Assembly (NCBI GenBank): GCA_004124475.1
Contig: SCKK01000008.1
Span: 8,075-40,074, forward strand
Direction: 5' to 3'
Length of the DNA stretch: 32,000 nt
Origin: Fidelibacterota bacterium
Lineage (GTDB): Bacteria > Fidelibacterota > Marinisomatia > Marinisomatales > SCKK01
Position 1 is the stretch's first letter; each line of letters starts with the position of its first letter. Shown here piece by piece: positions 1 to 29,628 of this stretch. The translations under genes were made by a program, and so were the position numbers. The notes under the pieces were generated by a model. The model searched no databases. It worked only from the letters and a program-made list of their open reading frames with translations, and was not told where the DNA came from.

Positions 1-1
1 A

Positions 2-325
2 GTGACTCATATTGTCAATCGGTTTATGCCCAACGAACGATGGGTCATTCAATTGAAATTCACTCAATTGAAGCATGGCGAACCTCGGACCGATGATGAT
101 TATCCTATCGGTTCAAATCCAAATGACAATTACAATGACCGTAACCAAGAAGATGACGACGTCACTTATTTTCTCATGGGGGATATCACAACAACCAACA
201 CGATCAAAATAAATGTTGATTACAGACTTTCAAATACAATTTGGGCCTGGTGTGCTGTAGAAACGATTGAATCAAAAAGTGAGGATCATACCATTATTCA
301 TATTGGGGTAAGGTTTGATTACTAA
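2..325 (+). CDS. hypothetical protein, 3' end (5' part lies outside the window)
   Basis: Open frame enters from the window edge and runs 107 codons. Its stop overlaps the next gene's start by 11 nt, an operon-like junction. The sequence is Asp/Asn-rich and has no motif I recognise. Confidence 0.35.
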   Translation: MTHIVNRFMPNERWVIQLKFTQLKHGEPRTDDDYPIGSNPNDNYNDRNQEDDDVTYFLMGDITTTNTIKINVDYRLSNTIWAWCAVETIESKSEDHTIIHIGVRFDY

Positions 326-1415: not shown

Positions 1416-1416
1416 T

Positions 1417-2433: not shown

Positions 2434-2435
2434 GA

Positions 2436-3281
2436 GTGAAAATTACTTTCTTATTGAAGCTCGCTTTTTCCATGCTGATCATGGCTTATTTATTTACCAG
2501 GTTGTCGTTGCATCAGGTCTATGATTTTTGGCAGACCTTGTCACTTAGTACAATTCTCGTTTTGTTTTTTCTTTTTCTAGTGAATCTTATGGTCCAGTTA
2601 TGGCGATGGAGAACCCTTGTAATTAGCCATCTCCCCAAAACGAGTTTTGATCAGATTATAAAATCGTTTTTTGCAGGATTTACGTTACGACTTTCTGTGC
2701 CCGGAGGATATGCAGAAGTTGGGAAGATATTTCTAGTAAGTGGTGGTCGAAAAGAGACATTATTTGCGTTTGGCATGGAAAAATACATTATTGCATCAAC
2801 GCAATTTCTGTTGGTGGGGTTTGCTGGTATGTATATTTTACCAGAATTTTACGCTGGCTCATTTACTATGGTTGTATTGGCAGTGACATTATTTACCGTA
2901 TACCCGTATTTCAAGAAGTTTCCTTTCTTGAAACGTCACTTAGACCCCGATTTTCCGTATTCTTCATCTATGATTATAGTGGCTGTATTAACGGTGATGG
3001 TTTATGCGTTGGTCACAACTCAATATTATTTTATGCTCCTACCCGAAAAGGTGTTGACATGGTTAGAAATGGCTTCGGTTGTCATCATTCTGATCGGTTC
3101 TGCAATGATTCCAATCTCCTATTCAGGTCTGGGAGTCAGAGAAGGTGTAGGAATTTTTCTCTTTCAGCGATTCGATGTTGGACAAGAGATAGTGGTAGGC
3201 ATGACGCTGTTGATTTTTCTTCTCAACATAGTACTCCCCGCCATTGTCGGGATGGTAGTGATTTTCAAATTTCGCAAATAG
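2436..3281 (+). CDS. flippase-like / lysyl-phosphatidylglycerol-synthase-TM-like (UPF0104) polytopic membrane protein
   Basis: About 8 predicted TM helices. The N-terminus has the family pattern KITFLLKLAFS...LVNLMVQLWRWRTLV. I prefer the GTG at 2436, 2 nt after the upstream stop, over the track's GTG at 2376, which overlaps the upstream gene by 58 nt. Confidence 0.65.
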   Translation: MKITFLLKLAFSMLIMAYLFTRLSLHQVYDFWQTLSLSTILVLFFLFLVNLMVQLWRWRTLVISHLPKTSFDQIIKSFFAGFTLRLSVPGGYAEVGKIFLVSGGRKETLFAFGMEKYIIASTQFLLVGFAGMYILPEFYAGSFTMVVLAVTLFTVYPYFKKFPFLKRHLDPDFPYSSSMIIVAVLTVMVYALVTTQYYFMLLPEKVLTWLEMASVVIILIGSAMIPISYSGLGVREGVGIFLFQRFDVGQEIVVGMTLLIFLLNIVLPAIVGMVVIFKFRK

Positions 3282-3803
3282 AGAATGTTTTCGTTTAAAC
3301 AATTATTGGGATCTGTGGATTTGTCACAGAAACACAATGATATTTTATAACATTAGGATAACGATAGATAGGGTAGTTTTGCAACTTCTTGTACAAATAT
3401 TCTTATACCTTAATTACCTCTTATGCAATGCTTGATATTGCTTTCTCTGCCTATGCATCGGCATGATGCGAAGCGGCTAATGAATGAGGCTAAATTCTGG
3501 TAAATATATTTGTCTCAGTCTCCTCCATTATGAAAGGGAAAGTTGAACAAGGAGATTGAGTAATGACTAATTGTCTTTTTGAATGAACAGTTCTCCGATG
3601 ATAAAGTAATTTGTTTCTATGCCACTATAATATTCAACTGTTCTGGACTACCACTCCATCTGCAGCCAACTGTTTTTACATCCTGCTAAAGTACATTACA
3701 TAGGATTTTATAACTATTATTCTGGGTATAAGATTAATATTGGATAAAAGATCGCCTCATAATCACTAAACGGTCACTCAAGCCTCCAAGTTCACTAATA
3801 TAA

Positions 3804-3878
3804 GGAGGGACAGAGTACTGAAAATCCTTGTGTCGCTGGTTTCCCGATTCAATCGGGAGCCCAGTCACGATACCCTCC
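3804..3878 (+). other. 75-nt segment closed by ggaggg/ccctcc with an internal anticodon-arm-like hairpin; candidate structured RNA or tRNA relic
   Basis: ggaggg (3804-3809) is complementary to ccctcc (3873-3878). There is an internal 5-bp stem with a 7-nt loop, tcccg-attcaat-cggga (3842-3858). A weak hairpin plus T-run follows (ataccc 3870-3875 / gggtat 3892-3897, tttttt to 3902). No T-arm or D-arm is present. Confidence 0.15.
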
Positions 3879-4090
3879 AATATAATGTGTTGGGTATTTT
3901 TTCCCCAATAGTCAGTTACTCCCCGACTTTGTAGAGGTGGACAGTCTTCTTGTTAATGAAAAAATACTATTACCTAAAAGAGAACATCCACTATATACTA
4001 ACAGAAAGAATTTCACATCTTTTTAATTGAAAATGATAGTAATTTATAACGTTAATCGTTGGGGTACTTAAATAATCAAGGTACAAGGTT

Positions 4091-4135
4091 CATCCTGAAG
4101 TTTCGGGATATTACTTGTCCCGAAACTTCGGGATG
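4091..4135. repeat. inverted repeat made of two copies of the 19-mer catcc[t/c]gaag[t/c]ttcggga[c/t]
   Basis: catcctgaagtttcggga (4091-4108) and tcccgaaacttcgggatg (4118-4135) are complementary at 17 of 18 positions, separated by a 9-nt spacer. The same 19-mer recurs at 13645-13663 and 22945-22963. Confidence 0.8.
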
Positions 4136-4166
4136 CTGTGCACAGTCAGCCTAAAAATGAAAATTC

Positions 4167-4244
4167 CTACCCGCCTGAACTACATAGTCGGGCAGGCCCG
4201 CCTGCTCCCCAGCTTGCCTCACTCTGTGAGTGGCGGGCAGGTAC
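4167..4244. repeat. GC-rich hairpin module, inverted copy of the module at 22783-22847
   Basis: It ends in cgggcaggtac (4234-4244), the reverse complement of gtacctgcccg at 22783-22793. cctgctcccc (4201-4210) is the reverse complement of ggggagcagg, which matches gggagcagg at about 22836-22845. In both loci the module sits next to the catcc..gaagtttcggga 19-mer. Confidence 0.6.
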
Positions 4245-4251
4245 AATCAAG

Positions 4252-5940
4252 TTAATATCCCGCCGCCTGTCCGTCCTTTCGGGATTCCGATGCCCCGTAA
4301 TAGACGCCCTGTTCGGAATCCCAGAGAATAGCTTGATAGCCCCCAAACCCACCTTTGGTTACTCGTACATTATGACCTTTTTGTTGTAGTGCTTCGATAA
4401 CGTCAGAAGAAAATCCGGATTCCAGATTCACGATTCCTCCATCAATCATTGATTCTCCTGTGGGTTGAGAACTTCCGGTATGGCGAATTCTGGGCGCATC
4501 TCCCGCCTCCTGCAGATTCATGCCAAAGTCCATGATGTTGACCAATATTTGAGCGTGCCCCTGTGGCTGCATGGCTCCCCCCATCACACCAAAGCTCATG
4601 AACGGCTTACCATCTTTCGTAACAAACGCAGGGATAATCGTGTGGAAGGGTCTCTTGTCGGGTTCAAATACGTTGAAATGACCTTCCTCCAAACTGAACA
4701 ACTCTCCCCTGTCTTGAAGGATAAAGCCGAGGTCTCCAGGCGTCATCCCGGAGCCCATGCCCCGGTAGTTACTCTGAATGAGAGATACCATATTTCCATC
4801 CTTGTCAGCCACGGTGAGGTAGATAGTATCGCCATCTTCCAAGTTACCGGGTTCGTAAGTGAGAGCTGCACGGTTTGGGTCAATGAGTTTTCGCCGTTCA
4901 TCGGCATAGTCCTTGGAAATCAGATGCTCTACCGGAATTTGGTTGAAAGCCGGATCGGCATAATATTGTGACCTATCCTCGAATGCCAACTTCTTTGCCT
5001 CCACAAATGTGTGGATATACTCAGCGCTGCCAAATCCCATGGATTTTATATCGTATTCTTCCAGGATATTCAGGATTTGCAAAGCTGCGATCCCCTGACC
5101 ATTGGGAGGCAGTTCCCAGACATCGTATCCCCTGTAGTTGGTGGAAACAGGTTCAACCCATTCGGATGTGTGGGAAGCAAGGTCTTCATAAGTGAGGAAT
5201 CCTCCTTGCTCCTGAATATATTCGGCGATGGCCTGGGCAATCTCACCTTCGTAAAAAGCATCCCGTCCTCCTCTTGCAATTTTTTTCAATGTTTTTGCCA
5301 AGCGTGGATTCTTGAAGATTTCCCCCTTTTTAGGAGCGCGACCGTTAGGCATAAAGGTATCTGCAAAGCCAGGGAATTCCTTGAGGATAGGGACACTCTT
5401 TTCCATGTAATAGGCAATCAGCTCAGTCACAGGGAAACCGGTTTCTGCATAATCAATGGCAGGTTGAAGAATCTTTTGCATGCTCAGTTTTCCAAATCGC
5501 TTGTGCATTTCAAACCATCCATCCACACAGCCCGGGACTGAAACGGGTAACGGTCCGTGTGAAGGGATACGAGTGTAGCCGTGATCACTAAAATATTTGA
5601 GAGTCAGGGATTTGGGAGAACGGCCACTGGCATTAAGACCGTAAAGTTTTTGGGACGAGGCAACCCAAATAATGGCAAATAAATCTCCACCGATACCGTT
5701 ACCCGTTGGTTCTACCAAACCGAGCACAGCATTTGCCGCAACGGCAGCGTCTATAGCGTTTCCACCTGCTTTAAGAATATCTAACGCCACTTGTGTTGCC
5801 AGCGGCTGGCTGGTTGCCGCCATACCGTTTCGGGCAATAACTTCGGAGCGGGTAGCAAAAGGCAAACCTGTGAGGCGATTCTGTGAGATTGCGGTGTTAT
5901 GAATGATCATTAATGAGGAAAATAGAATAATAGATCCCAT
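4252..5940 (-). CDS. ggt: gamma-glutamyltransferase
   Basis: 562 aa with a signal peptide. Family-typical blocks are present: ATSQPLATQVALDILKAGGNAIDAAVA, GIGGDLF, the autoprocessing/nucleophile site GDT-IYLTVADKDGNMVSLIQSNY, and FGVMGGAMQPQGHAQIL. Confidence 0.9.
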   Translation of the reverse strand: MGSIILFSSLMIIHNTAISQNRLTGLPFATRSEVIARNGMAATSQPLATQVALDILKAGGNAIDAAVAANAVLGLVEPTGNGIGGDLFAIIWVASSQKLYGLNASGRSPKSLTLKYFSDHGYTRIPSHGPLPVSVPGCVDGWFEMHKRFGKLSMQKILQPAIDYAETGFPVTELIAYYMEKSVPILKEFPGFADTFMPNGRAPKKGEIFKNPRLAKTLKKIARGGRDAFYEGEIAQAIAEYIQEQGGFLTYEDLASHTSEWVEPVSTNYRGYDVWELPPNGQGIAALQILNILEEYDIKSMGFGSAEYIHTFVEAKKLAFEDRSQYYADPAFNQIPVEHLISKDYADERRKLIDPNRAALTYEPGNLEDGDTIYLTVADKDGNMVSLIQSNYRGMGSGMTPGDLGFILQDRGELFSLEEGHFNVFEPDKRPFHTIIPAFVTKDGKPFMSFGVMGGAMQPQGHAQILVNIMDFGMNLQEAGDAPRIRHTGSSQPTGESMIDGGIVNLESGFSSDVIEALQQKGHNVRVTKGGFGGYQAILWDSEQGVYYGASESRKDGQAAGY

Positions 5941-6126
5941 AATGTATCCCCTTAATTTGATAGATGAGACGATTATTTTGATTGAAATATAGCAATTCCG
6001 GTAGTACCCTGCTCTAATGGGAATCTCGTTGGCTTTGATTAAAAATGCAATGAAATTGTGGGTTTGGATGAAACTATTCTGTAACTTTGCTTAAAATCCT
6101 TTCAACTTCAAAATAAGGAGCAAGTC

Positions 6127-7110
6127 ATGAGAATATATCTTTTAGTTATCGTGTGGTCTCTCCTATTTAATTCCAACATTGCTTATTCCCAAGAACTTCC
6201 TATCCGTCCGGTATCGACCTATTCTATTGTGGCGCTTGATCCTGAGACTAAAGAATTGGGTGTAGCAGTACAGAGCCATTGGTTTTCTGTCGGTCCCATA
6301 GTTCCATGGGCTGAAGCAGGTGTGGGAGCGGTAGCAACTCAATCGCTTGTGAAAATTGACTACGGTCCGGATGGGCTCAGGTTAATGCGAGAGGGACTTT
6401 CTGCAAGGGAAGCTCTTGAAAAGCTGATATCAGAGGATACGGGTCAGGCCGTGCGTCAGGTGGCTATGGTAGATATTCAAGGAAACGTGGCGACTCATAC
6501 AGGGGCTCGATGTATTGCAGCGGCGGGTCATCAAGCAGGCAAAAATTACTCCGTCCAGGCAAATTTGATGGAATATCCTACCGTCTGGCCAGCCATGGCG
6601 GAAGCCTTTGAACGGACACAAGGTGATCTGGCAGATCGGATGATGGCGGCGCTGGAAGCGGCACAGCGGGAAGGGGGAGACATCCGGGGGCGGCAATCTG
6701 CGGCCATGCTCATTGTCTCCGGTGAACCAACCGGTGTGCCTTGGAAAGATGTAATCCTGGATCTCCGGGTAGAGGATCACCCCGAACCGTTAAAGGAATT
6801 AAAACGGCTGATCCGTATCCATCGGGCATACAAACATGCCAATAAAGGGGATGAATTGCTGGAAGTGGATGATATCGAGGGAGCGCTCAGGGAGTATAGT
6901 CTGGCGGAGGAATATTATCCCGAAAACATCGAGCTTCCTTTTTGGACAGCGGTGACATTGGCAGGAACAGGACGATTAGAGGAAGCACTTCCTATATTCA
7001 AGAAAGTGTTTGCTATAAATGAAAAATGGCGAACACTAACTCCGAGATTGGTGAAATCGGAACTGCTGCCGGATGATCCGGATATGCTGGAGGAAATTAT
7101 CAAACAGTAG
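6127..7110 (+). CDS. DUF1028 family protein (putative Ntn hydrolase) with helical-repeat C-terminal region
   Basis: Signal peptide followed by the DUF1028 N-terminal signature STYSIVALDPETKELGVAVQSHWFSVGPIVPWAEAGVGAVATQS. The C-terminal ~90 aa look TPR-like. Confidence 0.75.
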   Translation: MRIYLLVIVWSLLFNSNIAYSQELPIRPVSTYSIVALDPETKELGVAVQSHWFSVGPIVPWAEAGVGAVATQSLVKIDYGPDGLRLMREGLSAREALEKLISEDTGQAVRQVAMVDIQGNVATHTGARCIAAAGHQAGKNYSVQANLMEYPTVWPAMAEAFERTQGDLADRMMAALEAAQREGGDIRGRQSAAMLIVSGEPTGVPWKDVILDLRVEDHPEPLKELKRLIRIHRAYKHANKGDELLEVDDIEGALREYSLAEEYYPENIELPFWTAVTLAGTGRLEEALPIFKKVFAINEKWRTLTPRLVKSELLPDDPDMLEEIIKQ

Positions 7111-8251
7111 CCCCTTGCTGGAATTAGCATTTATCTGCACCTCCTGTAAAAAACCATATGAGGGACAAGAAATCCCCACCCTCTGCTCCTGTGGTCATCC
7201 TCTTGAAGTCAGGTTGGATCTGGTAAAAACGGCCTCTGCTTCTGCAACTGCTACTATCAATCAAACCGACCCTTCCCTTTGGCGCTATCGATCTGTTTTA
7301 CCTCCCATCAGTGACGAACACATCACGACACTGATTGAAGGATGGACGGCTTTAAATCGTGCTGAGGACTATCTGGGTGTTTCCCTCTATTTCAAGGATG
7401 AAACGGTAAATCCCACGGGTTCTTTCAAGGATCGGGGGATGAGCTTGGCCATCTCTCACCTCCGTAGTTATGGAATCCGTGCTGTCTGTTTGCCATCGGC
7501 GGGGAATGCAGGTGTGGCGGCAGCCGCCTATTGTCAGGAGGCAGGAATCGAATGCCACGTCTACTTACCTGAAACCATCCCCACACCCTTTTTTGAAGCA
7601 ACTGAAAAGTATGGAGCAACGGTTCGTCTGGTGGGGAAAACCATAGCCGATGCGTCCAATGCTATGAAGAAAGAAAAACATGAAACCTGGTCTGACCTCT
7701 CCACGTTGAAGGAACCATTTCGTGTGGAAGGGAAAAAGACATTAGGGTATGAAATTGCAGAACAGTTGGAGTGGTGTTTCCCAGATGTGGTGGTCTATCC
7801 CACGGGTGGTGGGACAGGATTGATGGGCATGTGGAAAGCATTCAACGAAATGAAAGAAATGGGGTGGGTCGAAGGCAACCTTCCTCGCATGGTAGTGGTT
7901 CAGTCCTCGGGATGTGCTCCTATTGTTAACGCATTTGAGAAAGGGTTGAAGAAACACCAGCCGTGGCAAAAACCAGAGACATCCGCTCTCGGCTTGAATG
8001 TCTCGAATCCCATTGGAGGGCCCTGGATGCTCAGAGTTTTGCGGGAGAGTGCAGGTATAGCTGTGATGGTGGAGGAAGGAGAGATTCCAGCGGCGTGGAA
8101 AGAAGTGGCTGTCGTTTCAGGAACCGAGCCATCACCGGAGGCTGGAGTGGCATGGCTCGGTTTTAAATCATTTGTGGATTCAGGTTGGATTCACCCCGAA
8201 GAAGTAGTTATTATACCGATTACCGGGAGTGGAGAAAGATATGCATTATAA
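7073..8251 (+). CDS. thrC: threonine synthase (PLP-dependent, N-terminal zinc ribbon)
   Basis: PLP-lysine motif NPTGSFKDRG, an N-terminal CxxC...CxC ribbon (CTSCKK...CSCGH) and the glycine loop PTGGGTG. The start is uncertain: the ATG at 7073 overlaps the upstream gene by 38 nt, and the TTG at 7115 is the alternative. Confidence 0.85.
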   Translation: MIRICWRKLSNSSPLLELAFICTSCKKPYEGQEIPTLCSCGHPLEVRLDLVKTASASATATINQTDPSLWRYRSVLPPISDEHITTLIEGWTALNRAEDYLGVSLYFKDETVNPTGSFKDRGMSLAISHLRSYGIRAVCLPSAGNAGVAAAAYCQEAGIECHVYLPETIPTPFFEATEKYGATVRLVGKTIADASNAMKKEKHETWSDLSTLKEPFRVEGKKTLGYEIAEQLEWCFPDVVVYPTGGGTGLMGMWKAFNEMKEMGWVEGNLPRMVVVQSSGCAPIVNAFEKGLKKHQPWQKPETSALGLNVSNPIGGPWMLRVLRESAGIAVMVEEGEIPAAWKEVAVVSGTEPSPEAGVAWLGFKSFVDSGWIHPEEVVIIPITGSGERYAL

Positions 8252-8282
8252 GTGTTAAAGTGTTACATTGTTAAGGTGTTTG
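8251..8282 (+). repeat. four 8-nt-periodic GTGTT units starting at the thrC stop codon
   Basis: a-GTGTT-aa / a-GTGTT-ac / a-tTGTT-aa / g-GTGTT-tg. The same octamer periodicity occurs at 13368-13423. Confidence 0.6.
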
Positions 8283-8418
8283 AATATCTGATTACCATAC
8301 AGATTTCCGAAAGGGGAGGTAAGTGGAAAAATTTAAATAGGGAAAAGGTCTTATCGCTACTTTTGCGGCAGTGGCAGTTGGGTTGATGTTATTTCTCATC
8401 TTGTTTGGCAACCCATTG

Positions 8419-8721
8419 TCACAACGCACCATTTATAGCAACAGGATTTTTAGGAAATAGATAGTATACGTTTTTCGGATTGTCCACTCCCTGAATCACT
8501 TCGTAGATATAAGTAAGTGTATCAACTGTACTCTGAACCGCAAAGAAAGTCAGATCGTGTTCAGACAGGATAAAGGTTGTGTTCCACTCTTCAGGATCGA
8601 GTAAAATGGAAGTGTCTCCGGCCCAGTGATGGAAAACCATCGTCTGAGGATCGAGATTTGCCCGGATGTGGACGGTATCACCGGGTGCGTATGTACCGCT
8701 TCCATAACCACTTTCTACCAT
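8419..8721 (-). pseudogene. truncated fragment: beta-sandwich repeat domain plus the first residues of an esterase-like domain
   Basis: VESGYGSGTYAPGDTVHIRA...FHHWAGD resembles the small bacterial repeat domain found at the N-terminus of secreted hydrolases. The frame stops soon after YYLFPKNPV, where a hydrolase core would begin. The track's start at 8751 lies inside a terminator-like hairpin, and there is no RBS. Confidence 0.3.
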
Positions 8722-8725
8722 TAAT

Positions 8726-8762
8726 AAAAAGGCTGGCAACCCCAAAGTCACCAGCCTTTTTT
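8726..8762. terminator. bidirectional hairpin (A-run / GC stem / T-run)
   Basis: aaaaaggctgg-(14-nt loop)-ccagcctttttt. The stem is ggctgg 8731-8736 / ccagcc 8751-8756, extended by A/T pairs. Confidence 0.45.
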
Positions 8763-8772
8763 GTTGGTGTTT

Positions 8773-9040
8773 TTAACCTGTGTTAAAACATGAGACGAAT
8801 TCCGAGCTGCATCCGCCACCGTTCACATCACCGGAATAGATGAACGAGTATCTGTTGCCCCCGTCATTAACAAACCTGTTCCCTTCCGCCAGTTCAAAGA
8901 ACAGGCCTACGCTGGTCGCCATGCTCCTGGACCATTCATGGCGGTAATTGGCTCTCAACTCTGCTTTGACCTCTGGCCAGAACTCATCCGGTACTTTCCC
9001 TGAAAAGTAAACAAATTGCAAGCACTATATTCTTTTTCAT
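8773..9040 (-). pseudogene. relic of a second TonB-dependent receptor (internal beta-barrel fragment fused out of frame to a signal-peptide start)
   Basis: RANYRHEWSRSMATSVGLFFELAEGNRFVNDGGNRYSFIYSGDVNGGG parallels GAGNYSHSWSDRLTTHFGLFLELAEGNRFAGAGGNRYSFTYSGDINGDG of the neighbouring 1127-aa receptor. The ATG at 9040 has a ggagagaga RBS and encodes MKKNIVLAICLLF in a different frame, then hits a stop. Confidence 0.45.
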
Positions 9041-9254
9041 GGGTAGTCTCTCTCCTTCGCAGAACAACGTATGACAACGAATGAATACCCCGGCGTGCCC
9101 GAGAGTTTAGAGTCTCAGACCACAAGTTGCAAAATATTTGGCGGGGTCCCCGAGGTTCTGCGGGTAAAGCAGGTTAGGAAATTAAGAGAACGCAGTGGGA
9201 TCAGGAGCTAATAAAACCTCAGATTAAATCTGGTTCACTCAATGTGCCCAACGA

Positions 9255-12200
9255 TTAGAAAAGATAGCGGAGGCCGACCTGAATCTGCCAGCGCGAAAAG
9301 AGACCAGGGTCATCAATATATGTTTCCGCAGGTCCTGTAAAGTTGAGTTCAGGATTGCCGTTAGCGTCATATCCATTAAATCTTAGGGGTGAAGTTGCAG
9401 CAACGCTGGCAACTTTTCTTACTCCCCAATTTGAATTAAGGAGATTGGCAACATTCAGTATGTCAATACTCAACTGAATCTTATGACTCGTCTCTCCGAG
9501 TGATAACGCATAATCCTGGAGGATACGCAAATCAATGTTACTGTACCAGGGATTCACGGCGCCAAATCGTTCAGCGATCTCACCGCGATGCTCCTTCAAG
9601 TAATTGTCCTGCTCAATGAAAGCATCTAATGCTGTCCACTGTTCAGCTGCGGTAACTACATTTCCAGCTGAATTAGTAAAATCGACTAAATTGATTTCAC
9701 TTTGGTCGTTCGGAATGTAGATGAGGTCGTTGTTTGAAGGAGAACCGTCGCCGTTAATATCACCCGAATATGTAAATGAATAGCGATTCCCACCGGCTCC
9801 TGCAAATCTATTTCCTTCAGCTAATTCAAGGAACAAACCGAAGTGCGTTGTCAGTCTGTCCGACCAGCTATGACTGTAATTTCCAGCGCCTACGATTCGG
9901 TGCCGATGACCGAATTCGGAAAAGCTGAGTTCCGGCTTATTCGGATTGCCTTGAACCGGAGTCTGTTGCCACAATTCGAATGCGATTTCAGTCGATTTCA
10001 AATTACTTTTTGCCTCCGAGAAAGTATAAGATAGGCTGGTGTTAAGTCCGAAATCGAAATTCTTCCGCAGCTGCACCGTGAAGTTGAAATTGTACCCCTC
10101 GCTTGTGTTATCTATGATGTAAGCACCACTATAGGCATCGCCACTCCAAAGAGTATCTCCTCCGTCCAAAACCACAAAGGGATTCAGTATACCGCCTCCG
10201 TAAATGGGTCTGCCGTCAGGATCTGGAAGGTTTCCAACCGGAGCTGCCAAGTCGCCGTTTCTTAAATAAATCGCATTCAAATCTTTACCGTATAGAAATT
10301 CAAACGTTCCTAGAATATCCCAAGGTAGCTTCGTATCGACCGCAAAGTCTGTGGTCCAGACCTGTGGCCATTTAAAATCATCAACCATTGCATTCAGGAA
10401 GAAGCTCTGTTTCAAAACCGACCTGCCCTCATAGAGACGGCCCGAGCCGTCGTCAGTAACATGATCAGCTGGAATATCCTCTTCTGCAAGTCCTCCGTAA
10501 AACCCAAAAAGATTCGGATTTGGCCCTGGATTTGAAATATTATTTCCTATCCAGACAAATGGTAAACGTCCCGTAAAGATACCTGTACCTCCCCTCACTT
10601 GGAGCGACCGGTCTGCGTTGACATCCCAGTTGAAACCGACGCGGGGTGAAAACAAGAGACTTGCATCAGGGAGTTTACTCTGATCGACGGTCTCGGAGTC
10701 ACCATTTTCGTCCAACAGAATCATAGCTCTCGAGAATGGGTTATCAACAGGTTCCGTAAAATAAATTGGGCGATCTACACGGAGTCCGTATGTTAATTTA
10801 ATTTGTTCTGACATTTGAAATTCGTCTTGCACATAAAATGCCAGCTGACCCACCTCAATATTCTCGCCTACAAACGGACCGGAACCAACTAGCGCATTCA
10901 AGTCATAAAATTTTACGGCGCTATCTGGATTTGTTCGAGTATAGAAATTATCCACGGATGAAAATGTAGTAGCGCCAATACCATCCAGAAAATCGAAAGG
11001 AAGGAATCCCCCTGTCAGTATACCTAGATCAGCCGGTGCTAAAAATACACCGTGCCGGAATAGGTTGAATGAATTGAAGAAGTTGAATCGTTCATAGTTG
11101 ACGCCAACGGTATATACGTGCCTTCCGGAGAAATAACTGAGATTATTAGTAAACTGAAAGACATCCTGGTCTAATATGTTGTGTATCGAGAACGGTTCAT
11201 GACCCACCGTAGTATAAGTAATCCCATCTTCTCCAATCTCTATCGTTGGAAAATCCACGCTTACAGGTTTACGAAAATCGCGGAATTTATTATAGCTGAA
11301 AAAGAAGCGATTAGCAATTTTACTGCCGAACACACTGTTTAATTCCAGGGCATATGAATCTAGTTCGTTGTTGATTGTATATCCTGAATTCTGGAATGGC
11401 AAAGTGTTCTCGTTCGGTCCACGACCGGTACCTAAAAAACTGGCGGCAAATGGGTGCGGTGGCAGGTCACGAAATGCATCCAGCCTATTATATCTTAGAG
11501 TCAGGTTGTGATTATCATTGACGTTCCAATCTATCTTAAAGATTATCTTGTCGTTATCCGTACTGTGGAAATAATTTTCATATTCTCCCGTATCATAATT
11601 ATAGACGTCCTTCATGACCTTTCTAATTTCATCCATAGTTGCAGCACTGACGCGTGATTCACCAAATTCCACATTGCCATCTTGATCAGCCACAAAATTA
11701 CTGGCGGGATCCTCTCTTCTTTCTCTTTCAGCATTGAAGAAGAAAAATAGCTTATTTTGAATTATCGGCCCGCTGATAGTAAAACCTGTCTGATTGAACG
11801 ACAGGTTCGGTTTTGCAATTACTTCCTCTCCACTGACTTTATTACCGACAAAGCTTTCGTTCCTTGTATAACTATAAACCGATCCGTGAAATCGATTTGT
11901 GCCGCTCTTAGTTACCGTATTGATACCAGCACCGGTGAATCCGCCTTCACGTACGTCAAAGGGAGCAACAGAAACCTGCACTTGCTCAATGGCATCAATA
12001 GATACCGGTTCTGCGTTTGCCTGTCCACCTGGCGCGGGATCGTCTAACCCAAACGGATTGTTGAAATAGGAACCGTCGAGGGATATATTGTTATACAGCC
12101 AGTTCCTTCCACCAAAACTGAAATTGCCATCACTCCGAGGATCGAGCCGGGTGAGGTCTCGGACGCTCCTTTTGATCGATGGCATCAGCGCGACTTGCTC

Positions 12201-22736: not shown

Positions 22737-22782
22737 CCTGTAAATAGCATTGAGCATGGAACCAAGCACCCCGACACTTCGT

Positions 22783-22847
22783 GTACCTGCCCGTCCGGCA
22801 GGCCGGGCGGGATTTCCCTGCCTGGTCGGCAGACAGGGAGCAGGGAA
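22783..22847. repeat. GC-rich multi-hairpin module, partner of 4167-4244
   Basis: gtacctgcccgtccggcagg (stem cctgcc/ggcagg) is followed by ccgggcggg-attt-ccctgcctgg, a 9-bp stem with two G-T pairs, and then gggagcaggg. It shares its termini with the inverted copy near 4200. Confidence 0.6.
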
Positions 22848-23848: not shown

Positions 23849-25264
23849 ATGGAGAAGGAAATTCATCAGCTTAACAAAGCAGGGACCACATTCCGCACGA
23901 TTATTGAGCCGTTTAAAATCAAAACGGTAGAACCTCTCTGGATGACAACAGCGGAAGAGCGACAGAAGATTTTAAAGAATGTACACTACAACGTCTTTTT
24001 GATACAGGCTCAGGACGTCATCATCGATCTGCTCACAGACAGCGGCACCAGCGCTATGAGTTCGGAACAGTGGGCGGGCGTCATGCGTGGGGATGAAGCG
24101 TATGCCGGAAGTCGGAGTTATCAGAGATTTGAAGCCGTTGTCCATGAAATCTTTGGATTTAAGCATATCATCCCAACTCATCAGGGAAGAGCTGCGGAGA
24201 GAATCCTCTTTTCTGTGATGTGTAAAGAGGGAGACATCGTGCCAAACAACACCCATTTTGATACAACCCGGGCTAACGTGGAATTCCGGGGAGCCATAGC
24301 CGTAGACCTCCTCATCGATGAGGGGAAAGATACACAGAGCAAATACCCGTTTAAGGGAAACATGGATCTGGAAAAACTGAAAGCTCTTATCGATAAAGAA
24401 GGTGCCAAGAAAATCCCGCTATGTATGATTACCGTTACGAATAATTCCAGTGGTGGGCAGCCCGTGTCCATGACGAATATTAGGGCAGTTAAAAAGATTT
24501 TAGATGAGTATGGAGTTCCATTGTATTTAGATGCCTGTAGATTTGCAGAGAACGCTTATTTTATTAAACTTCGGGAAGATGGATATGAGAAAAAGTCTGT
24601 GGAAGAAATTGTTAAGGAAATGATGGGTTATGCTGATGGGTGCACCATGAGCGCCAAGAAAGATGGATTGACGAACATCGGCGGGTTTCTCTGCACAAAT
24701 GATGACATTCTTGCCCAACAGGAGCGGGATCTATTGATCATTTCTGAGGGATTCCCAACCTATGGAGGATTAGCCGGCAGAGATCTGGAAGCTATTGCCA
24801 TTGGACTGAAGGAAGTGCTTCACGAGGATTATCTGCTCTACCGGCTTGCTGAGACGCAGTACCTTGGTGAGCATCTGGATGAGATTGGATTCCCCATAGT
24901 TCAGCCGCCGGGAGGCCACGCTATTTACATCGATGCCAAAACCATGCTGCCGCATATTCCAGCAAGCCAGTATCCGGGACAGGCGTTGGTGGTTGAATTA
25001 TATCAGGTTGGAGGCATTCGTGCAGTTGAGATCGGATCGATTATGTTTGGGAAGGTAGATGAGGATACGGGGGAGGAAATTCCTGCAGAAATGGAGCTGG
25101 TCAGGTTGGCAATCCCGAGAAGGGTTTACACTCAAAGTCATATCGATTATGTAATTGAAGCCTGCAAGCGCGTTTGGGAAAATCGAGATGCGCTCAGGGG
25201 ATATAAAATTGTGGAGCAGGCAAAATTCCTGAGGCACTTTACAGCGAAGTTTGAGCCGGTTTAA
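23849..25264 (+). CDS. tnaA: tryptophanase (beta-eliminating lyase family; tyrosine phenol-lyase not excluded)
   Basis: 471 aa, colinear with TnaA/TPL. Conserved blocks are EPFKIKTVEP, DLLTDSGTSAMS, RGDEAYAGSRSY, IIPTHQGRAAE, TNNSSGGQPVS, the PLP-lysine motif SAKKDG, EGFPTYGGLAGRD, PHIPASQYPGQAL...GIRAVEIGS and LRHFTAKFEPV. Confidence 0.85.
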   Translation: MEKEIHQLNKAGTTFRTIIEPFKIKTVEPLWMTTAEERQKILKNVHYNVFLIQAQDVIIDLLTDSGTSAMSSEQWAGVMRGDEAYAGSRSYQRFEAVVHEIFGFKHIIPTHQGRAAERILFSVMCKEGDIVPNNTHFDTTRANVEFRGAIAVDLLIDEGKDTQSKYPFKGNMDLEKLKALIDKEGAKKIPLCMITVTNNSSGGQPVSMTNIRAVKKILDEYGVPLYLDACRFAENAYFIKLREDGYEKKSVEEIVKEMMGYADGCTMSAKKDGLTNIGGFLCTNDDILAQQERDLLIISEGFPTYGGLAGRDLEAIAIGLKEVLHEDYLLYRLAETQYLGEHLDEIGFPIVQPPGGHAIYIDAKTMLPHIPASQYPGQALVVELYQVGGIRAVEIGSIMFGKVDEDTGEEIPAEMELVRLAIPRRVYTQSHIDYVIEACKRVWENRDALRGYKIVEQAKFLRHFTAKFEPV

Positions 25265-25273
25265 CAAAAAGGA

Positions 25274-25290
25274 AAAAGATGTCATCTTTT
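25274..25290. repeat. 17-nt perfect palindrome aaaagatg-t-catctttt (REP-like)
   Basis: It lies 10 nt after the tnaA stop. The same palindrome flanks the RAYT gene at 27716-27730 and 28380-28414. Confidence 0.7.
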
Positions 25291-25300
25291 ATTGGAAGCC

Positions 25301-25426
25301 AAAACACCCCACGACCATGAAGTCCTCCAACGGCAGATTGATGCCACGGACAAGCAGATAGATCGGTTGGTGTATGAGCTGTATGAGTTGACGGAGGAGG
25401 AGATTGGGATTGTGGAAGGGAAATAG
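25301..25426 (+). pseudogene. relic A of the 3' end of an N6-adenine DNA methyltransferase / type IIG restriction-modification-like gene
   Basis: It translates to KTPHDHEVLQRQIDATDKQIDRLVYELYELTEEEIGIVEGK followed by a stop. This is the characteristic C-terminal helix motif (ID..VYeLYgLTeEEI.iVE) of Eco57I/type IIG/PglX-type methyltransferases. No methyltransferase body lies upstream. Confidence 0.6.
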
Positions 25427-25427
25427 C

Positions 25428-25541
25428 TTGCCAGATATAATTACAAATGTTCTAGTTGCAATCATTGTCGGATTAGTCTTGGCTTATGTAAGGTATTGCT
25501 TTGGTATTAGAAAATTTTGGTTTGAAATGAAAAATTTTTAG
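25428..25541 (+). CDS. possible 37-aa hydrophobic peptide
   Basis: Found by hand. The TTG at 25428 lies 7 nt after the GGAAGGG at the end of relic A. It encodes LPDIITNVLVAIIVGLVLAYVRYCFGIRKFWFEMKNF (one TM helix). It may not be expressed. Confidence 0.15.
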   Translation: MPDIITNVLVAIIVGLVLAYVRYCFGIRKFWFEMKNF

Positions 25542-25604
25542 CAAAATAAGGAAATAAAAAGAATTGATGGATTGTTGAAAATCCAAAAAGTTCGGGAGTT
25601 TGAT

Positions 25605-26393
25605 ATGTTTGAAAATTATGTTGAAGAACAAAAGGAACTTTTACCTTTTGTTAAAAAACAGTATAACATGTTCCCAAAGTTACAATTGCCCAGTTTCTAT
25701 GAGAGTGGAAATAATTTCATTGAAAGTAGGATAAGAAACAATACAACAAAATGGTGGAGAGAAATTGAGAATTGCGTAGAAGAAATATGTTATGCTTACT
25801 GTTTCTTTAAAGAATATATTTGCCTGAAAGACACATATCATGAAGATGTAGAATCTGATTCATTTAACCGGGCTTATGAAATTCTTCTCTTCGAAATACC
25901 ATTTTGGACAAACAACCTCTTAAGTAGGTTATATTCTTTCAGGGAAAAAATAGCGCACTTAATTTTCTTTTTGAATGACGGTGTGTTGAGGATTGGGAGA
26001 AAAAATAAGAAATATAGGATGCGTGATATTTCATTTAGCAACATTCATCAATCAATTAGAGATTTTTCGCAAAAGGACAAATTGCCAGTTTGGCTTTCTT
26101 ATAATGATAAGGAAGTTATGTTGAAGGCACTTAAAGAATTTGGGTCCGAAGAAGTTAAAAATCTATTGGATATCCGCCACGCATTCATTCATAATTCTTC
26201 ACCGGCTATTGACACAACTGGGACAGGACTATTGCTATTTGGCGGAGAAATGAATGGGGATGGTAATTTCTCAGTAGAAATCGAACGGCCTCCTAATTAT
26301 GATTACCAAACGATAGAAAGTGAATTCTTGAAAATTTGGGAAATATTTAAAGAGAACACGATAAAGATTTCAAGGTTAGAATTTTTTCAGTAA
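25605..26393 (+). CDS. hypothetical protein, HEPN-like (Cthe_2314/Abi-type) candidate
   Basis: The ATG at 25605 has a GGGAG RBS 6 nt upstream and is preferred over the track's TTG at 25572. It is predicted all-helical. There is an Rx4H motif in LLDIRHAFIHNSS preceded by the helix LYSFREKIAHLIFFLND, as in HEPN families. The coding sequence is AT-rich. Confidence 0.4.
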   Translation: MFENYVEEQKELLPFVKKQYNMFPKLQLPSFYESGNNFIESRIRNNTTKWWREIENCVEEICYAYCFFKEYICLKDTYHEDVESDSFNRAYEILLFEIPFWTNNLLSRLYSFREKIAHLIFFLNDGVLRIGRKNKKYRMRDISFSNIHQSIRDFSQKDKLPVWLSYNDKEVMLKALKEFGSEEVKNLLDIRHAFIHNSSPAIDTTGTGLLLFGGEMNGDGNFSVEIERPPNYDYQTIESEFLKIWEIFKENTIKISRLEFFQ

Positions 26394-26420
26394 AATATCG
26401 TAAGCTATCTTGTTTCGACT

Positions 26421-26545
26421 AAAACACCCCACGAACGTGAAGTCCTACAGCGGCAGATTGACCGGTTGGTGCCTGTCCGCCTACTGGCGGATATGAGTTG
26501 TATGAGTTGACGAAGGAGGAAGTTGGGATTGTGAAGAGGGGAAGG
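26421..26545 (+). pseudogene. relic B of the methyltransferase 3' end (21-nt deletion plus 20-nt hairpin insertion)
   Basis: The shared blocks are roughly 90% identical to relic A by eye. It lacks gccacggacaagcagatagat, a deletion between the imperfect direct repeats cagattgat and cagatagat. It carries cctgtccgcctactggcgga inserted between gtg and tat, which shifts the frame. Confidence 0.6.
26472..26491. repeat. 20-nt hairpin element inserted into relic B
   Basis: The stem is tccgcc/ggcgga with loop tact. Its reverse complement tccgccagtaggcggaca matches tccgccagctggcggaca at 14483-14500 at 16 of 18 positions. It is absent from the homologous position in relics A and C. Confidence 0.75.
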
Positions 26546-26550
26546 AAGAT

Positions 26551-27432
26551 ATGAGAAGAAAATTGGACCAGTATTTCAATAAAATATTCGTGATTGAGTC
26601 ATTAAGGAATAAAGACACAAAAACTGGAAGCGATCTTTATAATAAATATCTTAAGTTGAAAGTGAAACAAATCCAAGGCCTGGAAGCTGAGATAGTAATG
26701 CCGAAAACAAAGCAAGAATTTATTGATTTTCTTGAAAGAGTGTCGAATGAGGTACAAACAACTGATTTGCTTCCAGTATTCCATATTGAGATCCACGGAT
26801 CACCACAAGGATTAGAACTCGGTTCTGGTGAATTAATTGAATGGATGGAAATGTATCCCTTGCTTGTAGATATCAATACCCACATTGAAAATAATCTGCT
26901 AATTACTCTTGCAGTTTGCTGTGGTAACTACCTTACAAGTATTATTCTTCCTACTAAAAGAGCGCCTGTATGGGGCCTGATTAGTATTTGGGAAAAAGCG
27001 TGGGATTATGATATGGCAGTTAGTTTTAAGGAATTCTATGATGAGTTGCTAAGTTCCTTTGATGGTTTCTTTGATGGCGACAAAGCATTGGAAAAACTGA
27101 ATGAAGCTAACCCGGAAATAGGATATAAATACATATTCTATAGCTGCCAAAGGGTATTCCGTATGGCTTATAAGGAGCACTTGGCAAAGAACTACACTCA
27201 GGAAGCTATCAAAGAGAGAACACAAAGGATGTTTGAGAAGGCGCAGAATCAACCCCGATATAGAGGAAGGACCCCAAGGTCTATAAAAACACAACTCAGG
27301 AAAAATTTGTTAGAAAATCGCAGGCCAAAGTTTGAGGAATTCAAAGAAAAGTTTTTCATGTATGATTTATATCCAAAGAATAAGGGTCGATTTATTGTCC
27401 GATTTGAAGATGTCATGGCTGAGAATGATTAA
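26551..27432 (+). CDS. hypothetical protein, caspase/CHAT-like (clan CD His-Cys) candidate
   Basis: The alternating beta-alpha pattern places His after one strand (LLPVFHIEIHGSPQGLEL) and Cys after the next strand (NNLLITLAVCCGNY). This is the order and spacing seen in CHAT and caspase-fold peptidases. The C-terminal tail is helical and basic. A GGAAGGA RBS is supplied by the end of relic B. Confidence 0.35.
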   Translation: MRRKLDQYFNKIFVIESLRNKDTKTGSDLYNKYLKLKVKQIQGLEAEIVMPKTKQEFIDFLERVSNEVQTTDLLPVFHIEIHGSPQGLELGSGELIEWMEMYPLLVDINTHIENNLLITLAVCCGNYLTSIILPTKRAPVWGLISIWEKAWDYDMAVSFKEFYDELLSSFDGFFDGDKALEKLNEANPEIGYKYIFYSCQRVFRMAYKEHLAKNYTQEAIKERTQRMFEKAQNQPRYRGRTPRSIKTQLRKNLLENRRPKFEEFKEKFFMYDLYPKNKGRFIVRFEDVMAEND

Positions 27433-27517
27433 GTGTTAGGTTTATTCGATGATACTCTCTGTCCGCATGTATCCATCCTAATGAATTTTCGGTTACAAGA
27501 ATCACTTTTCCCCTCAA

Positions 27518-27640
27518 ATGCTGCACGATGAGACGGCTCTCCAGCGGCAGATAGATGCTACGGACAGGCAGATTGATCAATTGGTGTATAAGTTGTATGA
27601 ACTGACGGTGGGGGAGATCCGTCTAATCGAAGAAACGACG
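27518..27640 (+). pseudogene. relic C of the methyltransferase 3' end
   Basis: It translates to MLHDETALQRQIDATDRQIDQLVYKLYELTVGEIRLIEETT. The normal stop is lost, so the frame runs on through hairpin-element sequence to 27736. It is more diverged at the DNA level than relics A and B. Confidence 0.55.
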
Positions 27641-27715
27641 GACAATCCACGCCTACACAAGTTACGGCGGACAGGTAGAGATTGTGGAGGCAGGAACAAA
27701 AAGAGGACTGGGAAG

Positions 27716-27730
27716 AAAGATGACATCTTT
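27716..27730. repeat. 15-nt perfect palindrome aaagatg-a-catcttt (REP-like), 5' flank of the RAYT gene
   Basis: Located 31 nt upstream of the ATG at 27761. It has the same core as 25274-25290 and 28380-28414. Confidence 0.7.
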
Positions 27731-27760
27731 TATTAGAATCTTTTTACTACTTGAATTTCA

Positions 27761-28351
27761 ATGAGTGAAAAATCAGACATATTCGTACCAGGATCGTATT
27801 ATCACGTTTATAATCGAGCCGTCACAGGGAGTAAACTCTTCCTCGAGGATAAAAACCATCTGTTTTTCCTTCAAAAGTATGACAAATATTTATCAGATTT
27901 CCTTGATACTTATTGTTATTGCTTATTACCAAATCATTTTCATCTGTTGGTGAGAATTAAGGAGAACAATCTTAATAAAAACCAAAATGATTATGATCAA
28001 AGAATCAGTCAACAGTTTCGAAAATTCTTTATCTCATATGCCATGTCTTTCAACAATCTTTATGATCGCAAGGGTACACTTTTTCAACGGCCCTTTAAGA
28101 GAAAATGGATAGACAGTAAAGAATACCTGGTGTATCTCGTGTATTACATCCATTCAAATCCAGAAAGGCATAGAATTACAGAAGACTTTAAAACATATAA
28201 GTTGAGCTCATATAAAAAAATTCAAGGCACTTATCCAAGCAAATTAAAGCGAAAGGAATTATTGGAATGGTTTGGGGGATTGAAGGAATATGTTAGATTC
28301 CACGAGGAAATTCAGAATATTGACAGAATTAAACATCTAATGATCGATTAG
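27761..28351 (+). CDS. HUH Y1 transposase of the REP-associated (RAYT / IS200-like domain, COG1943-type) class
   Basis: YHVYNRAV...F, the HUH motif in CLLPNHFHLLVRI, FQRPFKRK, and the catalytic-Tyr motif YYIHSNPERH. 196 aa. Confidence 0.75.
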   Translation: MSEKSDIFVPGSYYHVYNRAVTGSKLFLEDKNHLFFLQKYDKYLSDFLDTYCYCLLPNHFHLLVRIKENNLNKNQNDYDQRISQQFRKFFISYAMSFNNLYDRKGTLFQRPFKRKWIDSKEYLVYLVYYIHSNPERHRITEDFKTYKLSSYKKIQGTYPSKLKRKELLEWFGGLKEYVRFHEEIQNIDRIKHLMID

Positions 28352-28379
28352 AAAATGTCACTATTAAAAAGAGAAAGAA

Positions 28380-28414
28380 AAAAGATGACATCTTTTCGAA
28401 AAGATGTCATCTTT
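28380..28414. repeat. head-to-head doublet of the aaaagatgNcatctttt palindrome (REPIN-like), 3' flank of the RAYT gene
   Basis: aaaagatgacatctttt (28380-28396), cg, then aaaagatgtcatcttt (28399-14). The central base is flipped (a then t), so the whole 35 nt is itself palindromic. Confidence 0.7.
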
Positions 28415-28455: not shown

Positions 28456-29628
28456 ATGAAAAAAACTGTCTCTATTTTCACACTAATGATACTGATAACT
28501 GCCTGTGGTGATACCACGGATACATTTCATCACCAGTCATTTGTGGCTGATACCCACAATGATGTATTGCTCCGAGTCATGCAGGGAGAAGATATCTCTC
28601 AGATCACCTCATCCGGCCATTCCGACATTCCCAGGATGCTGGAGGGTGGTATCGATGCGCAGGTTTTTTCCGTATGGGTTAATCCATCGGAATACGGACG
28701 TAACAATTCCTATGACCGGGCGATTGAAATGATAAAAGCGTTAGAGAATATTCAGGAGGCGGTTCCAAACAAGTTTGAAATCACCAAATCTTATGATGAT
28801 CTTCTGCGTATTGAGAAAGCGGGGAAATTGGCAGGAATCATTGGGGTTGAAGGTGGACATGCTATTGAAAACGTTATGGTAAACCTCATTCGCCTCTATC
28901 GTCGTGGGATGCGGTATTTGACACTCACTTGGAATAACTCTACACCATGGGCCACTTCCGCCCTTGATGAGACCAAAAATGAGGATATCCCTTTTCGAGG
29001 ACTAACAGACTTTGGCCGCAAAGTCGTGAAAAAATGCAATGAACTCGGAATTATGATCGATGTATCCCATTTGGGTGAACAGGCATTCTGGGATGTGATA
29101 GAAACAACTACCCAGCCTATCATCGCTTCCCATTCTTGTGTTTATTCCCTCTGCCCCCATTTTCGAAACCTTAAAGATGACCAGTTAAAAGCCATTGGAG
29201 ATAACGGCGGTGTTGTGTTTGTGAATTTTTATCCGGGTTATTTGGATAGCACCTTCAAAGACAAGGCTGATGCGATTGAGGAAACTCATCAAAGAGAGTT
29301 GGATTCGTTGAAAGCACTATATGACGAGGAATCCGATGATTATTGGTACGGGAGCATGGCAATCCTTGGGGAGGAATTAGCGAAAGCAGCCCCCACAGTA
29401 GATGCAGTGATTGATCACATAGATTATATCGCAAAATTAGTAGGCGTTGACCATGTGGGATTGGGATCAGATTTTGATGGCGTGTCTGTGCTTCCCAAGG
29501 GATTAGAGGATTGTACCAAAATGCCTGTGATCACACGAAAACTACTCCACCGTGGTTATTCTAAAGAGGACGTGAGAAAAATCATAGGAGAAAATTTCAG
29601 ACGTATTTTTAAAGAAGTTGTTGGATAA
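28456..29628 (+). CDS. membrane dipeptidase (peptidase family M19), lipoprotein
   Basis: Lipobox LITAC. Zinc-ligand and family motifs are present: VADTHNDVLLR, GVEGGHAIE, YLTLTWN, IDVSHL, IASHS and GLGSDFDG. Confidence 0.9.
   Translation: MKKTVSIFTLMILITACGDTTDTFHHQSFVADTHNDVLLRVMQGEDISQITSSGHSDIPRMLEGGIDAQVFSVWVNPSEYGRNNSYDRAIEMIKALENIQEAVPNKFEITKSYDDLLRIEKAGKLAGIIGVEGGHAIENVMVNLIRLYRRGMRYLTLTWNNSTPWATSALDETKNEDIPFRGLTDFGRKVVKKCNELGIMIDVSHLGEQAFWDVIETTTQPIIASHSCVYSLCPHFRNLKDDQLKAIGDNGGVVFVNFYPGYLDSTFKDKADAIEETHQRELDSLKALYDEESDDYWYGSMAILGEELAKAAPTVDAVIDHIDYIAKLVGVDHVGLGSDFDGVSVLPKGLEDCTKMPVITRKLLHRGYSKEDVRKIIGENFRRIFKEVVG

Follow-up and report, generated by a model that had tools for sequence, protein, structure and literature searches.

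The window, a stretch of 32,000 nucleotides from a Fidelibacterota bacterium (contig SCKK01000008.1, positions 8,075 to 40,074), carries an AT-rich island of 3.1 kb that is flanked by tnaA (23849-25264) on the left and by a gene for an M19 dipeptidase (28456-29628) on the right. The source is a metagenome-assembled genome of Candidatus Neomarinimicrobiota (Marinimicrobia). Within this island a segment of about 125 bp occurs three times on the same strand, as copy A at 25295-25426, copy B at 26421-26545 and copy C at 27518-27640. Judged by their sequence, the three repeats are pseudogene relics, comprising the last 25-45 codons of different type IIG restriction-methylase genes. Each relic would have been carried in together with the accessory gene directly downstream of its source methylase. 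The conserved tail of these methylases probably acts as a handle for homologous recombination, so that genes lying between two tails would be lost, gained or exchanged by crossing over.

Methylase tails and the genes behind them

The identity of the repeats is indicated by profile matches and by an intact counterpart of one of them. The peptide of tail A matches the last part of the PADLOC model REase_MTase_IIG (PDLC03609; E 2.1e-8, profile positions 1030-1062 of 1066) and that of tail C matches the same model (E 1.1e-6), the two together spanning positions 1030-1065. Three or four more type IIG models in PADLOC match the A and C peptides, and tail A is also recovered by tblastn against other tails. 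In locus L177, a stretch of tail, repetitive extragenic palindromic (REP) element and RAYT gene is 87% identical at the DNA level to window 27516-28395, and its tail is contiguous with Eco57I (Pfam, 3e-51) and TaqI_C (1e-17) domains in one intact open reading frame (ORF). Tails contiguous with an intact methylase are also found in L041 to L046 and in L183. Because of the profile matches and the intact L177 counterpart of copy C, the copies are taken to be relics of type IIG 3′ ends. An earlier interpretation of the letters alone (the sequence-only reading) had assigned the peptide to the C terminus of both type IIG and BREX PglX-type methyltransferases; the type IIG assignment stands, while that to PglX is not supported, since no PglX profile matches the tails (the REase_MTase_IIG and MTase_II models being the only ones to match at E up to 1) and the neighbours in the window are housekeeping genes. 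As that reading had held, no methylase body is present in the whole 32 kb, according to tblastn with 28 full-length methylase bodies and Pfam searches of the large ORFs; the sole tblastn match to a body (E 0.002, inside the RAYT gene) is spurious. With no catalytic domain, the locus has relics and no functional methylase. The same gene order is found in 7 contigs, the longest of them in the 0.2-1 Mb size class (307 kb the longest listed), so the arrangement is not an accident of assembly; exact-protein look-ups of tnaA and the dipeptidase returned this arrangement only.

Each copy, all of them on the forward strand, has its own condition. Tail A comprises the last ~43 codons of a methylase in an open frame that ends with TAG. 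The frame of tail B is broken: 21 nt are deleted near 26461, and a GC-rich hairpin of 20 nt, CCTGTCCGCCTACTGGCGGA, is inserted at 26472-26491. After tail C, comparison with the intact gene of L177 reveals an insertion of ~29 nt (roughly 27635-27663). The two blocks shared by A and B have 90% identity, and an 80-nt alignment of A with C has 84%, with codon changes that, read by eye, are 7 synonymous and 5 replacement. The three direct copies, the similarity of A and B and both lesions of copy B had been recognized in the sequence-only reading and are confirmed here, with A beginning at 25295. The GC content is 0.30-0.39 in the island and 0.39-0.51 in tnaA, in line with the contrast noted in that reading. 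That each copy lies directly upstream of an ORF requires correction for A, where a 45-codon remnant intervenes before the next gene, and for C, where a REP palindrome precedes the RAYT gene.

The remnant behind tail A (25404-25541, forward strand) is what is left of a cassette gene for a membrane protein, with which this tail was originally paired. It is 54% identical (E 7e-15) to the N terminus of a 162-residue ORF in L101, which overlaps the end of an intact methylase. The window carries remnants of four tail-linked units.

The HEPN-like cassette gene (25605-26393, forward strand) encodes 262 residues from its ATG. Its product matches Pfam HEPN_Cthe2314 at E 4e-5 with 24.1 bits, under the gathering cut-off of 27.1, and the R-x4-H motif, R191-x4-H196, is invariant across 5 HEPN-like homologues. 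Only four homologues (P0002 to P0005) were found among 5.8 billion sequences, and the genes in L041, L045, L046 and L183 all start 5-62 nt past an intact type IIG gene. In three of these four loci (L041, L046 and L183) a further relic tail follows 27-39 nt after the HEPN-like stop codon, as copy B does in the window.

The caspase-like (CHAT-like) cassette gene (26551-27432, forward strand) encodes 293 residues for which there is no Pfam match. Its AlphaFold2 model has a mean pLDDT of 77, and the top Foldseek matches are the SAVED-CHAT structure 8tl0 (E 7e-7) and caspases, with probability 1.0 and TM-scores of 0.41-0.62. Residues H82, G83 and C123 are invariant among the homologues. The protein is predicted from this model to have a caspase/CHAT-like fold with a His-Cys dyad and to be a protease. 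In L047, which has a homologue of 73% identity, a 72-residue relic lies upstream, in which ~28 N-terminal codons of a methylase are fused to a tail with a GC-rich insertion. The junction between tail B and the start of the ORF is conserved in L047, and tail B and the caspase-like ORF are kept as one unit in L047-L049. The association on which the sequence-only reading had staked its proposal is found in the homologues of both the HEPN-like and the caspase-like ORFs, which lie behind such tails.

A more distant homologue of the caspase-like ORF, with 36% identity, sits in an attC-type array in L050/L051 (JGI 3300028837 and 3300008516; 1-11153). This array has 14 ORFs on the same strand, separated by attC-like spacers with GTTAGGC / GCCTAAC cores, and its cargo includes the caspase-like homologue, HEPN_RiboL-PSP, DUF1848 and a DAC/DACNH protein. 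The whole resembles an integron array whose cassettes contain genes of the defence type.

The third gene after a tail (27761-28351, forward strand) probably encodes a RAYT (REP-associated Y1 transposase). It matches NCBIfam REP_Tyr_transpos at E 6e-14 with 52 bits, under the cut-off of 80, and the HUH (NHFHLL) and YIHSNP motifs can be read in its sequence. It has 311 homologues, several of which are called RayT by their source, and the RAYT gene of L177, which lies behind the Eco57I/TaqI_C ORF, is 93% identical to it.

Mosaic tails and their origin

Comparisons between strains place breakpoints inside the tails. L044 is 99% identical to L041 apart from two differences. It lacks 4.1 kb of L041, containing five ORFs and a toxin-antitoxin pair, and the junction is a hybrid tail whose 5′ part matches tail 2 of L041 and whose 3′ part matches tail 4. 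The first tail of L044 is also a mosaic, divergent at its beginning and identical to L041 from ~15 nt in, and upstream of it an unrelated ORF takes the place of the L041 methylase. The same RAYT protein lies behind the intact methylase in L177, whereas in L179 and L180 it is preceded by a relic that differs between the two, the relic tail of L179 joining the insertion of copy B to the 3′ end of copy C. L062 and L165 share a tail and a 276-residue cassette with 92% identity, the homology starting inside the tail; in L062 the shared pair stands behind an intact methylase, and in L165 it is the second unit of an array made of relics only. In L083 and L156 the cargo differs between relatives, with the breakpoint in the conserved flank. 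The position of the crossover within the tail is not constant among these examples, as would be expected of homologous recombination and not of a site-specific reaction. These mosaic tails support the suggestion of the sequence-only reading that recombination had passed through the tail. The check that it proposed, a search for an empty site between tnaA and the dipeptidase gene, gave no clean empty site in GTDB genomes: L003, whose tnaA is 99% identical, has the same left junction as the window followed by a different tail, at which its contig ends, and the other relatives are at most 79% identical and without conserved synteny.

The tail is a short conserved stretch with the hypervariable recognition domain upstream and a hypervariable accessory gene downstream. 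As the only part that is conserved between these two segments, it is a site where homologous recombination between diverged loci can resolve. L085 and L147, and L057, L107 and L141 among themselves, have a homologous catalytic region, a non-homologous recognition domain, a homologous tail of ~220 nt and different cassettes. The tail is both the 3′ arm of the known recognition-domain swaps and the 5′ arm of the cassette swaps.

One could suppose instead that the tails are inert debris of a passive graveyard, in which complete type IIG-plus-accessory operons pile up in tandem and their bodies are later deleted. In-frame fusions of a methylase N terminus to a tail in L047 (72 residues), L074 and L108 are of the kind that such deletions would leave, and the occurrence of one RAYT protein behind both an intact methylase and relics, as well as the stops and frameshifts of relics, can be read in the same way. 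The hybrid and mosaic tails at deletion junctions are not explained by this account, nor are the cassettes whose upstream partner differs between loci, with the change of partner falling inside the tail, nor the rarity of recognition-domain remains in the relics. As a full explanation the graveyard is unlikely, and such decay probably contributes to the arrays without being a true rival.

The origin of the tails within one array can be judged from their codons, using Nei-Gojobori counts over shared codons. The proportions of synonymous (pS) and replacement (pN) differences are 0.44 and 0.18 for pairs of relics in the same locus, 0.43 and 0.14 for a methylase and a relic in the same locus, and 0.63 and 0.26 for functional tails of different loci; binning pairs by pS was too noisy for use. 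The ratio pN/pS is 0.33-0.41 in all classes of pairs, and the tails of L114 differ by 11 synonymous and 2 replacement changes. In-frame stops are present in 12 of 80 relics and in 1 of 45 intact tails, a sign that the relics do decay. Since pN/pS is far under 1, most of the divergence among the tails of an array dates from the time when they still belonged to working genes, so that they were imported from different methylase genes and not duplicated in place. This supports the capture of each gene together with its tail, as the sequence-only reading had envisaged.

The same counts bear on a further possibility, that each accessory gene entered the 3′ end of a methylase and duplicated a target of ~100 bp. 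Insertion with long target duplication has been documented for DNA linked to restriction-modification genes and gives direct repeats without any mobility genes (Furuta et al. 2010). Duplicates that decay after insertion would give a pN/pS of about 1, which disagrees with the ratios above at a same-locus pS of 0.43-0.44 and with the preponderance of synonymous changes in L114, and for copy C an intact gene of origin exists at another locus, in L177. The flanking tails are not copies of each other, so target-site duplication is largely refuted by the codon analysis and is extremely unlikely to account for the arrays.

Arrays of tails, their formation and the surrounding repeats

The arrangement seen in the window recurs widely. 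A scan with a DNA pattern derived from the tails gave at least 120 metagenome loci, and tblastn for tails in 121 loci found 181 tails, of which 53 end long ORFs and 105 are relics, 66 of the latter being isolated from any similarity to a methylase body. Two to five tails are present in 41 of the 121 loci; no locus of the 121 has tails on both strands. The GC content of the array loci ranges from 0.34 to 0.66. The usual unit consists of a tail, 5-150 nt, one ORF of 150-350 residues on the same strand, and 10-100 nt before the next tail. The relics seldom keep parts of the recognition domain, the open frame upstream of them is mostly shorter than 50 codons, and they are ragged at both the 5′ and the 3′ end, with 17 to 67 recognisable residues. 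A search of a plasmid collection with the consensus tail turned up 7 records from haloarchaea or methanogens, none of them with a usable array, and among viral contigs there was one pattern match only.

The genes between the tails are diverse. BLASTP at 1e-5 sorts 46 cassette ORFs into 43 groups, 42 of which contain a single ORF, the exception being the HEPN family; in the 41 arrays sampled nearly every cassette ORF belongs to a different family, many of the ORFs fall into defence families, and many have no known domain. The recognisable families, which are typical hitch-hikers of restriction-modification systems, include RhuM, DUF4238, Ymh, GmrSD_N, Mrr_cat, Schlafen-AlbA_2, NYN, SNase, HicB and AbiU2, and the PADLOC candidates among the cassettes are PDC-S02, S05, S13, S18, S23, HEC-05 and HEC-09. 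Toxin-antitoxin pairs also stand at cassette positions between tails, at L041:6330-7628 (PhdYeFM/ParE) and L044:1422-1613 (a small ORF followed by a HicA toxin gene), a placement also known from chromosomal integrons.

The short tail frames might themselves be small functional proteins or leader ORFs of 50-100 residues, for example for translational coupling to the cassette gene. Copies A and C do have open frames, the divergence of the relics bears a coding signature, and a search of protein representatives gave 4352 matches, most of the best 150 of which are 53-200 residues long with the tail at their C-terminal end, although some of these short entries may be fragments from contig edges. 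Against this, copy B is frame-broken, the in-frame stops noted above affect 12 of 80 relics, the ends of the relics are ragged, and GC-rich insertions interrupt several of them. There is next to no likelihood that the tails are maintained as such proteins.

The geometry of the arrays resembles that of integrons, and site-specific or single-strand recombination with the tail as its site, whether driven by the RAYT nearby, by a system like that of integrons or by some unknown enzyme in trans, has therefore to be weighed against homologous recombination. The caspase-like homologue in the true attC-type array of L050/L051 and the RAYT gene and REPs that adjoin the array in the window point in the same direction. 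The tails, however, fold no better than shuffled sequences on either strand (z-scores +0.7 to -1.6), by which an attC or hairpin site is rejected, and no R′/R″ core (GTTRRRY or RYYYAAC) is seen in them by eye. Crossover points vary within the tail, and the synonymous divergence between loci is near saturation, which implies that no site is kept at the DNA level beyond the coding constraint. Among 64 flanking ORFs in 38 array loci one is a Phage_integrase, and a recombinase linked to the arrays is rejected because none recurs nearby. Apart from the RAYT, no integrase or other recombinase family is found among the annotated genes or large ORFs of the window, and the genes called in the L041 and L046 arrays do not include a RAYT. 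A dedicated recombinase acting on the tail is very unlikely.

In the mechanism that is preferred here, host homologous recombination of the RecA type would pair non-allelic tails. Recombination between direct repeats would remove cassettes, possibly freeing circles of a tail and a gene, and cassettes could be added and stacked when such circles re-integrate or when tails pair unequally during allele exchange. The first junction between the 3′ flank of an ORF and a tail may have come from illegitimate deletion of a methylase body, as the fusions in L047, L074 and L108 suggest. The outcome would be co-oriented arrays of tail, gene and tail that behave like integrons without an integrase or attC.

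Several points weigh against recombination between tails as the whole explanation. Some pairs of strains lose homology 110-334 nt downstream of the tail and not within it, the distance being 125-334 nt in L064/L077, L137/L176 and L129/L174. At the L041/L044 junction the exact stretch common to the parental tails is only ~7 nt and the tails are 80-92% identical, so that RecA would have had a poor or marginal substrate, unless the actual parents resembled each other more closely. The fusions just mentioned represent relics that arose by plain deletion of the methylase body, and the initial joining of a tail to the 3′ flank of an ORF is beyond homologous recombination alone. Tandem pairs of tails that are 70-130 nt apart with no ORF between them are not explained by simple tail-to-tail recombination either. 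All of the data come from metagenome contigs, and because the search pattern was chosen from these tails, the array frequency of 34% is not unbiased and is indicative only.

Close pairs of tails were seen in L063, L075, L076, L079, L120, L132, L147, L151, L152, L154 and L168; some of them are one tail split by an insertion, and others are truly two tails.

Among closely related strains, the contigs of L003 (9441-9545; JADFPG010000071.1), L002 and L040 stop at the REP pair or within a tail. Assembly from short reads is apparently interrupted at tail and REP repeats, and tail arrays are therefore probably under-represented in metagenome-assembled genomes and under-counted.

Taken more broadly, the type IIG tail may be a general docking handle, without a dedicated recombinase, that assembles, stacks and exchanges single-gene defence cassettes across many bacterial lineages as a RecA-driven analogue of the integron; this extension is put forward tentatively, with somewhat less than even confidence. 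If it is true, such an analogue would have gone unnoticed because assemblies break at the tails and annotators ignore relics of 100 bp. It would provide a concrete route by which unrelated defence genes land beside or inside restriction-modification loci, and a third route of cassette accretion besides integrons and integrase-borne islands. It would also explain why uncultured marine and sediment bacteria acquire and lose accessory immunity genes so quickly, and an isolated tail relic would be a cheap marker for candidate defence genes.

The island in the window is bracketed by REP palindromes. A REP-like palindrome, AAAGATGTCATCTTT (25275-25289), lies 10 nt after the tnaA stop codon at the left edge, a second (27716-27730) lies upstream of the RAYT gene, and a REP pair that forms a perfect 34-nt palindrome (28381-28414) marks the right edge; no strand is assigned to any of them. 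The AT-rich palindrome AAAGATGWCATCTTT occurs at 25275, 27716, 28381 and 28400, that is, 4 times in the window against 0.29 expected, and all four are at the island, where they bracket it and flank the RAYT gene. The flank of the left REP, TTATTGGAA, repeats the context upstream of the RAYT gene. In a scan of the island for promoters and terminators the REP pair alone was above chance, and no known RNA families were found in the island. The unit of tail C, REP, RAYT and REP, for which the 87% identity to L177 was given above, has different neighbours in the two loci, a dipeptidase gene in the window and an amine oxidase gene in L177, which implies a move within the genome, either of this RAYT locus or of the array that is joined to it.

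A second type of palindrome is GC-rich. Insertions of 20-55 nt of the CCTGYC..GRCAGG type break relic tails at varying positions across loci, as at window 26472-26491 and 27664-27675, L179:~104-146, L180, L003:9513-9533 and L047:1025-1078, and similar palindromes fill the intergenic region upstream of a DUF481 gene (window 22770-22840). Copy B and L179 have the identical insertion in the identical place. These insertions may be a second class of REPs or miniature inverted-repeat transposable elements, or they may be footprints of repair.

The other large ORFs of the window belong to housekeeping families only, according to Pfam. Between 15093 and 22669 a cluster encodes a CarboxypepD_reg protein, two TPR proteins, a MotA/ExbB-like protein, a MotB_plug/OmpA-like protein, a 519-residue protein whose family is unknown and one that combines FliG_N, FliG_M and FliG_C domains, with no other flagellar genes in view. 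This stator-plus-FliG module is unusual for a Marinimicrobia genome.

Tail arrays and known systems

The tail arrays can be compared with integrons and clusters of attC sites lacking integron integrases (CALINs). In both, co-oriented cassettes, mostly with a single ORF and of unrelated functions, are separated by a repeated element of ~100 bp, the cargo is rich in toxin and defence genes, and cassettes are gained, lost and reshuffled; one cassette family found here also occurs in a true attC array. The differences lie in the repeat, which is here the relic of a coding gene's end and not a hairpin attC, in the lack of IntI, in the variable crossover points, and in the anchor, which is a type IIG restriction-methylase gene rather than attI/Pc. 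The likeness to integrons is architectural only. Tandem genomic islands at tRNA and tmRNA genes also have direct 3′-end repeats that mark the borders of successive insertions, and these repeats are the att sites of tyrosine integrases carried on large elements. In contrast, the cassettes here are ~1 kb long and lack an integrase, and their tails derive from different source genes.

In the minimal mobile elements of Neisseria and in defence hotspots flanked by conserved genes (P2/P4, Vibrio and the Pseudomonas core), cargo is exchanged by homologous recombination in the flanks (PMC3787668, PMC1797815, PMC10250203). The tail-linked cassettes share with them a variable cargo, conserved flanks and the lack of mobility genes in the unit. 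The handle here, however, is only ~100-200 bp long, is part of a defence gene and is copied with each cassette; relic handles pile up as internal repeats and form arrays, and the handle is common to distant lineages rather than to one species.

Defence genes that are 'embedded' in restriction-modification and Hma loci have been described by Payne et al. (bioRxiv 10.1101/2024.01.29.577857), who use embedding as a heuristic for discovery and do not mention recombination, remnants or repeated gene ends. The same families stand beside a restriction-modification gene in both cases (PDC-S, HEC-05, HEC-09, RhuM, DUF4238 and Ymh), and the tail relics add a candidate mechanism and a finer marker. No prior description of methylase-tail relics as cassette borders was found in the literature, the coverage of which was incomplete, so that this amounts to an absence of evidence only.

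The pneumococcal tvr locus reportedly has a dedicated site-specific recombinase, which moves recognition-domain segments and not foreign genes. Segments of this type I restriction-modification locus that are bounded by repeats are excised and reinserted (PMC6265443), which is a point of likeness to the tail arrays. Recognition-domain swapping in type I HsdS and type IIG proteins is close to the process proposed here, since the conserved flanks of the hypervariable domain serve as the recombination arms and the tail is the 3′ arm. In the known cases such swaps alter specificity, whereas here the same arm would also turn over the unrelated genes downstream of it and leave relics behind.

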